Below the pieces are notes generated by a model that was not told where the DNA came from, did no database searches, and saw only the letters and a program-made list of their open reading frames with translations. Shown in pieces: positions 49,246 through 50,731 of a stretch of DNA of 64,000 nucleotides (position 1 is its first letter; the number at the start of each line of letters is the position of its first letter). The stretch is from the NCBI RefSeq assembly GCF_036507355.1, contig NZ_AP027877.1; one strand, given 5' to 3'. The position numbers and the translations under genes are program-made. This DNA comes from Escherichia coli (GTDB lineage: Bacteria > Pseudomonadota > Gammaproteobacteria > Enterobacterales > Enterobacteriaceae).

Positions 49246-49268
49246 GAAGGGCCGCGAAAGCGGCCCTT
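49246..49268 (+). terminator. Hairpin terminator after tktA (first of two identical hairpin copies)
   Basis: GAAGGGCCGCGAAAGCGGCCCTT; the same hairpin recurs at 49422-49447. Confidence 0.5.
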
Positions 49269-49296
49269 TAGATTATTGGTAAAGTGCGCGTTGTTC

Positions 49297-49399
49297 ATGT
49301 CGGATGCGGCGTGAACGCCTTATCCGACCTACAAGATCGTGCAAATTCAATATATTGCAGGAAGTATGTAGGCCTGATAAGCGTAGCGCATCAGGCAGT
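49297..49399. repeat. BIME (two inverted REP units)
   Basis: TGTCGGATGCGGCGTGAACGCCTTATCCGACCTAC and GTAGGCCTGATAAGCGTAGCGCATCAGGCAG. Confidence 0.7.
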
Positions 49400-49445
49400 T
49401 TTGCTTTTGCCATCACTCTCAAGGGCCGCGAAAGCGGCCCTTTTT

Positions 49446-50354
49446 TTACTTAGTAGAGATAAACGGAACTGTGCTGCCGGGGATCATGGTATCGGGCAGT
49501 TTACCGTCCCAACGTTCGGCAGTGGTGAGGGCTACAAGTCCGGGATTATCCCGCAGAGCTTCACCGCGCAGGCGGATTGCTTCTGCTTCAGCCGCACTTT
49601 TTAAACGAATAGTTTCAGCCTCTGCCGCGCCTCTTACGCGAATAGTTTCCGCTTCTGCTTTGGCTGCCGCCAGTTTACTGTCTGCTTCTGCCTGGGCCTG
49701 AGTTACCGCTATTTGCGCCTGGATTTTCTCTGTTTCCAGATTTTGCTTACGCGTGGCAATGGCGACTTCTGCTTTCATTCGGTCTTCAATCGACTTTTCA
49801 TAAGCGTCAGAAAAATCAATATTTTCAATCTGGACCCCGTCAATTACCACTGGCCCAACAACGGCTTTGCGCATGGCATTTTGCAGATCCTGAACCAGTT
49901 TTGTACGATCCTGTACAGCGCTGATGGCGGTATATTGGCCGAAAACGTTCTCCAGTTGAGTTGGCAACTGACGGACAATCAGACGATCTTTTAATGCTTC
50001 AATGGTGTTGTAGGTGGTATAAACCGCGCCTGCTTCTGAAGGTTTAATGTGGAAGCTGACTGATACTGTCATTTGTGCCGGTTGCTGGTCGCGGCTGTAG
50101 GCCTGTAATCCCTGATAGACCACAGCCTGATTACGCGTGGAAATTTTCTCCACGCTTTCCATAAACGGGATCTTAAAACCCAGACCCGGCTCGGCAACTT
50201 TTACGATTTTTCCGTAGCGCAGCAAAATGCCGCGTTCACCTTCATTAACGGTGTAATACGAGAGAAATGGCAGCACAACCACGGCAAGCACGCCAATGGC
50301 GATAGCAAGAGATTTTTGTGGGCGAAATGAGGTTAATGAAACAGGTGCTTTCAT
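49446..50354 (-). CDS. SPFH/band-7 (prohibitin/HflC-like) membrane protein
   Basis: 302 aa with N-terminal TM segment and SPFH-like core followed by an Ala/Glu-rich coiled-coil tail. I do not recall a gene at this position in K-12. Confidence 0.65.
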   Translation of the reverse strand: MKAPVSLTSFRPQKSLAIAIGVLAVVVLPFLSYYTVNEGERGILLRYGKIVKVAEPGLGFKIPFMESVEKISTRNQAVVYQGLQAYSRDQQPAQMTVSVSFHIKPSEAGAVYTTYNTIEALKDRLIVRQLPTQLENVFGQYTAISAVQDRTKLVQDLQNAMRKAVVGPVVIDGVQIENIDFSDAYEKSIEDRMKAEVAIATRKQNLETEKIQAQIAVTQAQAEADSKLAAAKAEAETIRVRGAAEAETIRLKSAAEAEAIRLRGEALRDNPGLVALTTAERWDGKLPDTMIPGSTVPFISTK

Positions 50355-50731
50355 GACAATCTTCCTTGAGTAAAGTGTGGGAATATGTCACATGAGATGA
50401 GGAGAAAACAGCCGACAGGTGAGAATTCAGAATCTATAAAGGGGTATAGCGAAAAAACATTGCATTAGAAAAGTATGTTTTCGAACATTCAATAAATAAA
50501 TAGAGATATGCATCACAAATACAATAACAAACAAAATGTTGATTTTGTGATAAATATAACAAATACAAAGTTGACTTTAAAAATATCAATTTCATATTGT
50601 TGTTATTTAAGGTTTTATTATTTTGGTTTATGGGGTTTTTCTTCTCGCGTACCCAATTGCTTTCATTAAACCGCACGAGTATTTTATTTTTACCGCCTGA
50701 CGGTACCCTAAAAATAAAATAAGGATAATTT

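Follow-up and report, generated by a model that had tools for sequence, protein, structure and literature searches.

A duplicated terminator hairpin around a BIME-1 element beside tktA of Escherichia coli as a probable insertion footprint, next to an SPFH gene missing from K-12

The interval between tktA and cmtB in the stretch of E. coli DNA analysed here (64 kb, hereafter the window) is likely to be explained by three separate events, namely an old SPFH gene that was later lost in many strains, a BIME-1 insertion that duplicated a hairpin, and repeat-driven changes in copy number. A previous sequence-only reading had seen in the repeated hairpin, and in a gene that it took to be missing from K-12, the sign of an insertion or duplication event. 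That suggestion stands for the hairpins, whose duplication appears to be the footprint of a BIME-1 insertion, and falls for the gene, which appears to be ancestral and lost in K-12; the two facts are unrelated. Since the gene seems to be ancestral and lost in K-12, most of the region would be no more than the usual polymorphism between strains, with a single lead on mechanism that is of modest interest.

The hairpin was found twice, as claimed in the sequence-only reading, after tktA and after the convergent SPFH gene. Two exact copies of GGGCCGCGAAAGCGGCCC (49249-49266 and 49423-49440) lie on the + strand, their loops oriented alike, and a search of the 64 kb window with up to two mismatches returned the same two sites only; the chance expectation was 0.01 per window, and two copies were reached in none of 100 shuffles. 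When extended, the direct repeat reaches 22-23 nt (AAGGGCCGCGAAAGCGGCCCTTT), with a start-to-start spacing of 174 bp. Folding gave each copy a 9-10 bp stem (-18 to -20.6 kcal/mol, z -4.1 to -6.2), and the whole 226-nt tktA 3′ UTR folded as one long stem (-99.7 kcal/mol, z -7.6). The same reading had the hairpins bracketing the SPFH gene; in fact both copies are 3′ of that gene, each touching one end of BIME-1, and it is the element that they bracket. A reading of the hairpins as att sites or island ends was rejected because the SPFH gene has both copies on the same side.

The two copies differ in their tails (Table 1). Copy 1, the left-hand one of the two target palindromes that the duplication would have left, adjoins the left BIME-1 end and is followed by TAGATT with no T-run; it did not pass the terminator scan, lacking the U-run. 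Copy 2, with a 9-bp stem and T7 on the + strand (the tktA direction), was predicted to be a rho-independent terminator and is the sole consensus intrinsic terminator predicted between tktA and the SPFH gene; its T-run overlaps the SPFH stop codon (49446-49448). Read on the minus strand, neither hairpin had the U-run according to the terminator scan and folding. For the two convergent genes, the insertion would have meant rewired 3′ ends, with a hairpin kept by each and a U-run by one only.

Table 1. Positions of the features between tktA and cmtB in the window
Feature	Position	Strand	Sequence, evidence and remarks
tktA (transketolase) CDS	47235-49226	+	ORF list, tkt annotation in matching genomes, tblastn; hairpins and BIME-1 in its 3′ UTR
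Hairpin copy 1	49247-49268	+	AAGGGCCGCGAAAGCGGCCCTT; fold -20.6 kcal/mol, z -5.4
BIME-1 (RIP/RIB-type), 152 bp	49269-49420	+	End-to-end alignment with other BIME-1 copies; BIME-1 HMM over full length
BIME-1 left end			(C/T)AGATTATTGGTAAAGTGCGCGTTGTTCA; conserved outer motif
Y REP	about 49298-49333		Ends ..CCTACA
L linker	49334-49366		Holds IHF-like ATTCAATATATTG at 49345-49357
Z1 REP	49367-49397		Starts TGTAGG..
BIME-1 right end			GTTTTGCTTTTGCCATCACTCTC; conserved outer motif
Hairpin copy 2	49421-49447	+	AAGGGCCGCGAAAGCGGCCCTT (49421-49442) and T7 run (49441-49447); fold -18.9 kcal/mol, z -4.5
Stand-alone SPFH/Band_7 gene, 302 aa	49446-50354	-	PF01145; RefSeq name 'prohibitin family protein'
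AT-rich (27-31% GC), fast-diverging region upstream of SPFH gene	50355-50653	.	Composition, alignment
cmtB	50732-51175	+	Right-hand conserved flank of the polymorphic segment

The REP pair that had been noticed between the hairpins was identified by alignment and Rfam as the Y and Z1 REPs of a BIME-1, a class of extragenic elements of ~150 bp found at the 3′ ends of transcription units, which strains have or lack in their entirety (PMC3333891, PMC1187871). The tktA element aligned end to end with the copies at rlmC-artJ, fepA-entD and mscK-rsmS, and positions 1-153 of the BIME-1 HMM were matched by these four copies and by that at gcd-cueO. It has inverted Y and Z1 REPs with GTAG/CTAC heads and a long conserved L linker, in which the putative IHF site ATTCAATATATTG agrees with the consensus WATCAANNNNTTR at all specified positions except one, and it shows the outer motifs of an element of ~145-150 bp. 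Rfam ES036/CssrF matched 49333-49375 with 53.5 bits versus a gathering score of 37.6, and the naRNA4 (REP) matches within the element were partial. BIME-1 has been described as single-copy at a locus (PMC3333891), and this holds for the one unit in the window but fails at the tktA locus of EcPF15 (two tandem units) and MOD1-EC7003 (three).

On the 3′ side of tktA, Pseudocitrobacter (...GAGAAGGGCCGCGAAAGCGGCCCTTTTTTTA...) has one identical hairpin and no BIME, suggesting that the ancestral tktA terminator was the target of the BIME-1 insertion and that its palindrome was duplicated in full. The hairpin with T7 is the lone copy both in Pseudocitrobacter and in single-hairpin E. coli, and BIME-1 with the same junctions was present in every Escherichia species sampled. 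We therefore regard the hairpin duplication as the probable footprint of a BIME-1 insertion-plus-duplication predating E. coli. According to this scheme, tktA and the SPFH gene would once have shared a single GC-rich hairpin with a T7 tail, acting as the tktA terminator. The 152-bp element would have integrated at the hairpin foot before the E. coli/E. albertii split, and the whole 22-bp palindrome would have been duplicated on its entry, with one copy touching each element end. The tktA-proximal hairpin would then have lost its T-run, and the SPFH-proximal one kept it.

The 22-bp repeats created in this way would make the site unstable in copy number, through unequal recombination or slippage. 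Precise loss would leave a single hairpin and remove the BIME, and tandem gain would give three hairpins with two BIMEs or four with three. The tktA locus was found with 0, 1, 2 or 3 BIME-1 units depending on the strain. Three hairpins and two BIMEs are present in EcPF15, with the middle hairpin inside a perfect palindrome with 25-bp arms, and MOD1-EC7003 carries a tandem array with a period of 175 and 3.1 copies (four hairpins, three BIMEs). The SPFH gene with a single hairpin was seen in roughly 430-450 genomes (the difference between all carriers and those with two hairpins; 448 at an identity of at least 99%), a rough count as the coverage of the junction query did not separate the alleles, BLAST having joined split pieces. 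The single-hairpin E. coli alleles are clean. In S1-JOR-02 the SPFH gene is 99.8% identical with that of the window's filled allele, and further single-hairpin alleles occur on SPFH backgrounds of 96-97.6% and 94-95.7%. At least one of these alleles clearly looks like a recent deletion from the sequences compared, and their presence on three diverged backgrounds could reflect an old retained polymorphism instead of repeated deletion. In E. whittamii, copy 2 carries a compensatory stem change (GAGCCGC/GCGGCTC).

Nine BIME-1 loci were examined: tktA, rlmC-artJ, mscK-rsmS, fepA-entD, gcd-cueO, yaaX-yaaA, 23544-23677 in the window and two metagenomic loci. A double hairpin was found at the first three, all between convergent genes, and was absent at the other six, several of which have a hairpin at one end only. 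The empty rlmC-artJ allele carries a single hairpin (AAAAAAGCCGCAGGTGCGGCTTT) and the filled one reads AAGCCGCATGTGCGGCTT[BIME-1]AAGCCGCGGTTGCGGCTT, a difference of 170 bp. The same pattern and the same difference of 170 bp were seen at mscK-rsmS, where the hairpin copies have diverged; both comparisons were made without an outgroup and do not independently set the order of insertion versus precise deletion at these two loci. Strain EC10 has BIME-1 at rlmC-artJ with the second hairpin copy missing, which appears from the sequence to be a derived deletion. Copies at the other loci had the same CAGATTG...CAGTCTC boundaries with flanking hairpins that differ by locus (GGGCCGC.., AAGCCGC.., GGGGCGAC..), and no BIME-1 copy elsewhere in the window or at the other loci examined ended in GGGCCGCGAAAGCGGCCC. 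Thus, as in a target duplication, direct repeats occur at both element ends and one copy in the empty site at tktA, rlmC-artJ and mscK-rsmS. The duplicated length is not fixed (22, 18 and about 20-21 bp respectively), each duplication being the local palindrome, and not all BIME-1 copies are accompanied by one. With three of the nine loci only, BIME-1 insertion therefore need not produce a duplication, or else the second hairpin frequently disappears afterwards. Wider scans gave few loci: a 31-nt end motif, which was too specific, matched 120 metagenome stretches representing about six loci, and a linker motif gave nine matches in viral contigs. In the first 250 kb of K-12 MG1655, for which the RefSeq record has no REP or RIP features, the BIME-1 HMM found one full and one partial copy.

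The domain search on the convergent gene bore out its assignment: PF01145 matched residues 35-210 (E=5.6e-32, 111.6 bits versus a cut-off of 23.6), between a hydrophobic N-terminal anchor and an Ala/Glu-rich repeat tail. The nearest solved relatives were HflC (2.4e-13), HflK (9e-11) and QmcA (9e-7). The protein resembles HflC/HflK and prohibitin-type SPFH proteins in its Band_7 domain, N-terminal membrane anchor and C-terminal helical repeat tail, and HflC/HflK are its best sequence matches, yet it lies far below their equivalog cut-offs (TIGR01932, 60.5 versus 134.4; TIGR01933, 37.4 versus 159.4). It is probably an HflC-like membrane-anchored scaffold. The gene, convergent with tktA (which ends at 49226) and followed by the cmtB start at 50732, is of typical GC content (0.46-0.54). 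It differs from the hflK-hflC type in being single, monocistronic, without a partner gene or an NfeD neighbour, and absent from K-12; across 80 loci in other genera, no conserved partner gene was found beyond within-genus synteny. To our knowledge, studies based on K-12 list only four SPFH proteins, HflK, HflC, QmcA and YqiK. If the gene is ancestral, this K-12-centred view would be corrected by a fifth SPFH scaffold gene beside tktA, kept in roughly a third of sequenced strains and without a described function.

The same convergent arrangement with tktA was found in E. albertii, E. whittamii, Escherichia sp. MOD1-EC7003 (cryptic clade) and two Pseudocitrobacter genomes. Nucleotide identity to the window gene was 96-100% within E. 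coli (ETEC4067, 94%), 93-95% in cryptic clades, 88% in E. albertii and 79% in Pseudocitrobacter, a divergence that follows the species order, as does that of tktA. The sequence-only reading had left room for an arrangement that is ancestral and universal in E. coli. It appears to be ancestral but is not universal: the gene is present in 1818 of 5426 complete E. coli genomes (~34%), including Nissle 1917, ST131 and APEC lineages, and hairpin-BIME-hairpin in ~1386 of them. K-12-type genomes, as had been supposed, and O157 lack the gene. In the K-12-type allele, seen in K-12 and O157, 49227-50653 is replaced by ~235 bp of barely alignable AT-rich DNA with a different terminator (AAAAAGGTCGCTTCGGCGACCTTTTTT); what both alleles have in common is confined to the final 78 bp in front of cmtB (50654-50731; 98.7%, blastn), and blastn found no SPFH remnants in the K-12 allele. 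The tktA-cmtB interval, for which a comparison across strains had been suggested, is thus polymorphic, both by the K-12/O157 replacement and by the number of BIME-1 units, but not through insertion of the gene. We consider the SPFH gene to be an ancestral neighbour of tktA, with K-12 and O157 carrying a loss or replacement allele. The gene's tail-to-tail position beside tktA would be older than the divergence of Escherichia, and its later loss, in about two thirds of E. coli, would be a deletion or replacement that begins at the tktA stop codon and ends ~78 bp before cmtB. Salmonella, Citrobacter and Klebsiella were not represented among the best 80 SPFH matches. As the gene occurs only patchily in other genera, an ancient transfer between Pseudocitrobacter and Escherichia is conceivable.

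Three other explanations were weighed against this account. The gene might be a cassette acquired horizontally by this strain, with the two hairpins as insertion scars or attachment repeats, as its absence from K-12, O157 and two thirds of complete E. coli genomes, the AT-rich region upstream of it and the lack of Salmonella, Citrobacter and Klebsiella among those best 80 matches would allow. We find this scarcely credible: the gene keeps its synteny with tktA in four other Escherichia lineages and Pseudocitrobacter with species-ordered divergence, its GC content is normal and no mobility genes accompany it, both repeats lie on the same side of it, and strains with one hairpin keep it. It is also very unlikely that the hairpins are the terminal palindromes of a longer BIME-1 variant, all single-hairpin alleles being secondary deletions and no target having been duplicated. 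The element ends and hairpin halves do make extended inverted repeats, the 3′ UTR folds as one stem, the middle hairpin of EcPF15 sits in its 25-bp-armed palindrome, and one single-hairpin allele at least looks like a recent deletion. However, the hairpins are locus-specific whereas the BIME-1 ends are conserved, the copies at fepA-entD and gcd-cueO have no such ends, and in Pseudocitrobacter, a separate genus with no BIME at this site, the tktA terminator is the same hairpin at the same place.

The remaining alternative, which we judge unlikely, is that BIME-1 inserted beside the hairpin without target duplication, the second hairpin arising later by an unrelated local duplication or gene conversion and being kept by selection. 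Each convergent gene would need its own 3′ hairpin, and the compensatory change in E. whittamii copy 2 indicates selection on structure; RAYT/IS200-type chemistry gives no duplication, and the loci with a hairpin on one side only fit as well. Nevertheless, the exact geometry is repeated at three independent loci with three different hairpins, each copy touching an element end, and the filled-minus-empty size equals the element plus one hairpin at all three, whereas a separate duplication would have to hit the precise opposite element end every time.

Returning to insertion with duplication, we offer a mechanism tentatively, as a possibility that may well prove wrong: where two convergent genes meet, BIME-1 elements (REP doublets) may enter the DNA at the foot of an extruded terminator palindrome and copy the hairpin in full. 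The 'target-site duplication' would then be defined by structure and would vary in length (18-22 bp). Integration would occur at the base of the extruded palindrome, a cruciform-base step that is pure inference, where the two attacked phosphates would be near in three dimensions and a whole hairpin apart in sequence, so that the 'target-site duplication' would be the palindrome itself. The enzyme responsible could be RAYT or another. Such a footprint is not stated in the literature searched, a set that left out two key older BIME-1 papers. Together, the reproducible whole-hairpin duplication and the ancestral single-hairpin sites provide a concrete, testable footprint. If the proposal is true, the BIME/REPIN integration step would have its first sequence footprint, which would also explain how a single-copy BIME-1 seeds tandem arrays and is precisely excised. 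Of the strain variation at tktA in BIME-1 units and gene content, the gene part is routine pan-genome bookkeeping and the repeat part may matter more.

Compared with known systems, the tktA element is like published BIME-1 (RIP, RIB) in its inverted Y and Z1 REPs, long linker with an IHF-type site, outer motifs and whole-unit presence or absence, and differs in that some strains have it as a tandem array of two to three units joined by a non-BIME hairpin. It shares with the REPINs mobilized by RAYT (TnpA-REP), whose gene rayT is annotated in K-12, the inverted REP doublet, the GTAG/CTAC heads and the behaviour of a non-autonomous mobile unit. However, the Y1 transposases of the IS200/IS605 type, relatives of RAYT, make no target duplication and have no terminal inverted repeats (PMC2817692); the presumed mobilizing enzyme, with this single-strand mechanism, therefore does not obviously explain an 18-22 bp duplication equal to the palindrome. 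Bacterial MITEs (Correia, IS-derived; for the general definition see PMC3184786) are likewise short non-coding elements with imperfect terminal inverted repeats and direct-repeat flanks, one repeat remaining in the empty site, but their duplication is short, fixed and set by the transposase, whereas that of the BIME-1 cases varies in length and is the whole hairpin. Structure- or sequence-directed integration into extragenic palindromes is also seen for IS1397, ISKpn1 and other IS, which target REP palindromes (PMC1525189). There the IS enters the REP, whereas at tktA a REP-containing element would have entered a non-REP terminator palindrome and duplicated it.

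Two copies of a hairpin lie downstream of tktA with a repeat element between them, as the sequence-only reading had proposed. Region reading confirmed this arrangement, and a search for the 18-nt hairpin core that tolerated two mismatches gave exactly two matches in the 64 kb, where 0.01 would be expected. The direct repeat reached 23 nt, with its copies separated by 174 bp (repeat finder). However, the hairpins do not bracket the SPFH gene as had been claimed; both are downstream of that gene and bracket the repeat element instead.

Features of the tktA-cmtB region (window positions)
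Feature	Position	Strand	Remarks
tktA	ends 49226	+	ORF listing
Hairpin copy 1, AAGGGCCGCGAAAGCGGCCCTT	49247-49268	+	region reading
Repeat element, 152 bp	49269-49420		between the hairpin copies
Hairpin copy 2	49421-49442	+	22 nt identical to copy 1; then seven T, to 49447
SPFH ORF, 302 codons	49446-50354	-	stop codon overlaps the T-run of hairpin copy 2
AT-rich spacer, 377 bp	50355-50731		between SPFH ORF and cmtB
cmtB	starts 50732		ORF listing

The 152-bp element aligned end to end with copies at rlmC-artJ (K-12), fepA-entD (O55:H7) and mscK-rsmS, and carried a Y REP and then a Z1 REP, joined by a linker with an IHF-type site, with the end motif CAGATTGYTGACAAAGTGCGCGTTGTTCA on the Y side and GTTTTGCNTTTGTCATCAGTCTC on the Z1 side. 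The element is thus a BIME-1, also called RIP or RIB, with the layout described for it (PMC3333891, PMC1187871). Its linker (window 49333-49375) matched Rfam ES036/CssrF above the gathering score; the IHF linker of BIME-1, a dispersed repeat, seems to be what this family models, and not a locus-specific sRNA gene. A second BIME-1-like element was seen on the minus strand at window 23544-23677, where a GC-rich hairpin, CAGGCCAGCATTTGCTGGCCC, abuts the left end only and has no copy on the opposite side.

Both hairpin copies were predicted to fold strongly, whichever strand was read (-18 to -20.6 kcal/mol, z -4.1 to -6.2). Copy 2 alone retains the T-run and was picked up by a consensus terminator scan, for transcription from tktA but not from the opposite side, so that tktA transcripts probably run through hairpin 1 and BIME-1 and terminate afterwards. 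The whole tktA 3' UTR RNA (window 49227-49452, plus strand) was predicted as one long stem (-99.7 kcal/mol, z -7.6), built by mutual pairing of both hairpin copies and the end motifs of BIME-1, in competition with the two local hairpins.

The tktA-SPFH interval of Pseudocitrobacter contains this same hairpin exactly once, followed by T7, and no BIME (GAGAAGGGCCGCGAAAGCGGCCCTTTTTTTA), and in all Escherichia species sampled BIME-1 is present with each end abutted by one hairpin copy. The target of BIME-1 was thus the ancestral tktA terminator, with duplication of the whole 22-bp palindrome, and the insertion predates the E. coli/E. albertii split. Copy 2 of E. whittamii carries a compensatory stem change (GAGCCGC...GCGGCTC), suggesting that the hairpin structure is under selection.

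At rlmC-artJ the filled K-12 allele reads AAGCCGCATGTGCGGCTT, BIME-1, AAGCCGCGGTTGCGGCTT, and AAAAAAGCCGCAGGTGCGGCTTT occurs just once in strains without the element; the two alleles differ in size by 170 bp. The mscK-rsmS site has the same geometry with more diverged hairpin copies, and its filled and empty alleles again differ by 170 bp. All three sites, that at tktA-SPFH included, lie between convergent genes. Whole-hairpin duplication is not universal among BIME-1 loci: the double pattern was present at three loci in a small sample of nine, several others having a hairpin at one end only and some none. The rlmC-artJ site of O157:H7 str. EC10 (L215 ~250-490) still has the left hairpin and a BIME-1 copy that has diverged, and the right hairpin is gone together with seven adjacent bases; here the second hairpin seems clearly to have been lost secondarily. 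Such a decay intermediate could account for BIME-1 loci with a one-sided hairpin.

The duplications are 22, 18 and about 20 bp long, each the length of the local palindrome, and the element ends exactly at the hairpin feet. We infer that BIME-1 may integrate at the base of an extruded palindrome or cruciform, where two phosphates a hairpin length apart in sequence would become spatial neighbours, and that repair would then leave one full palindrome on each side of the element. Since RAYT, the presumed mobilising family, is related to IS200/IS605 and makes no target duplication (PMC2817692), the reaction would be non-canonical or some other activity would take part. There is a low probability that the second hairpin was added afterwards by an independent duplication and was favoured by selection. 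It is similarly improbable that the hairpins are part of a longer element, as their sequences are locus-specific, which argues that they lie outside BIME-1.

The SPFH gene, already annotated in RefSeq, is carried by 1818 of 5426 complete E. coli genomes. In K-12-type and O157 genomes, tktA and cmtB are instead separated by 313 bp that contain another terminator, AAAAAGGTCGCTTCGGCGACCTTTTTT. This spacer and the window have just the 78 bp nearest cmtB in common; over the remainder, alignment to the AT-rich DNA upstream of the SPFH gene is weak or absent. When one genome was scanned for each species, the gene was also found tail-to-tail beside tktA in four further lineages: E. whittamii, Escherichia sp. 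MOD1-EC7003, E. albertii and two Pseudocitrobacter genomes. Its identity to the window was 96-100% within E. coli (94% in a further strain, ETEC4067), 93-95% in cryptic clades, 88% in E. albertii and 79% in Pseudocitrobacter; tktA identity fell in the same species order, and the GC content of the SPFH gene was ordinary. Given this synteny, species-order divergence and GC content, the most economical interpretation is that the gene was inherited vertically within Escherichia and lost in lineages including K-12. Insertion of the SPFH gene was ruled out by its tktA-adjacent position in other lineages and its species-order identity. Thus the insertion or duplication suspected earlier holds for the hairpin, duplicated around an inserted BIME-1, but not for the gene, which appears ancestral but is not universal in E. 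coli.

The AT-rich SPFH-cmtB spacer (27-31% GC) was unusually divergent between lineages, with flanking genes 94-99% identical. By eye, in a sequence alignment, the window was markedly diverged from Nissle and more so from E. albertii, conservation being limited to the 78 bp adjoining cmtB. Against O157:H7 (L003), tktA (47235-49226) had only 96.9% nucleotide identity and the cmtB and cmtA proteins 100%, which suggests a recombination mosaic with a breakpoint in or near the polymorphic spacer.

Domain search bore out the SPFH identity of the ORF (PF01145, Band_7/SPFH, 111.6 bits, residues 35-210), whose product is named 'prohibitin family protein' in RefSeq. The protein scored far below both the HflC and HflK equivalog thresholds, and the closest solved structures were HflC, HflK, QmcA and prohibitin. 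By inspection, basic residues precede a hydrophobic stretch (~residues 15-33), suggesting an HflC-like arrangement in which an N-in anchor would leave the SPFH domain outside. Homologues with 50-60% identity occur in Pseudomonas, Shewanella, Cellvibrio, Yersinia and Rhizobiales; no neighbour gene beside them was conserved across genera, and no NfeD or HflK-type partner was found, so the gene stands alone. In E. coli TUM13064 (L004 3334-6945) an ISEcp1-blaCTX-M-14-IS903B insertion truncates the 5' end of the SPFH gene, which shows that a resistance transposition unit can land at this locus as well.

The direct repeats render the tktA site unstable. EcPF15 has two BIME-1 units and three hairpins, and MOD1-EC7003 three units and four hairpins in a tandem array of period 175. 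The hairpin-BIME-1 units of EcPF15 (L008 127-322 and 301-496) differed at only 6 of 196 positions, and four of these fall within 8 nt where unit 2 begins on the left. Through these clustered changes the middle hairpin has become perfectly palindromic over 25-bp arms, CTTTGCCATCAGTCTCAAGGGCCGC GAAA GCGGCCCTTGAGACTGATGGCAAAG (L008 276-329), a pattern that resembles the outcome of fold-back-templated conversion across the hairpin. In roughly 430-450 E. coli genomes the SPFH gene comes with a single clean hairpin. In one such strain, S1-JOR-02, the gene is 99.8% identical to that of the filled window allele, so that its single-hairpin state is a recent precise deletion; two others sit on diverged backgrounds, implying that excision has recurred or that the polymorphism is old.

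Taken together, the region is a real, well-explained structure and mostly ordinary strain polymorphism. Presence/absence polymorphism of BIME-1 has been known since the 1990s. Neither whole-hairpin duplication with polarised empty sites nor tandem BIME-1 arrays built on a duplicated hairpin were found in the accessible literature, although earlier descriptions are possible. The hairpin duplication offers a modestly interesting and testable clue to the integration of BIME elements. BIME-1 has been described as occurring in single copies (PMC3333891), and the tandem arrays at tktA in EcPF15 and MOD1-EC7003 depart from that description.
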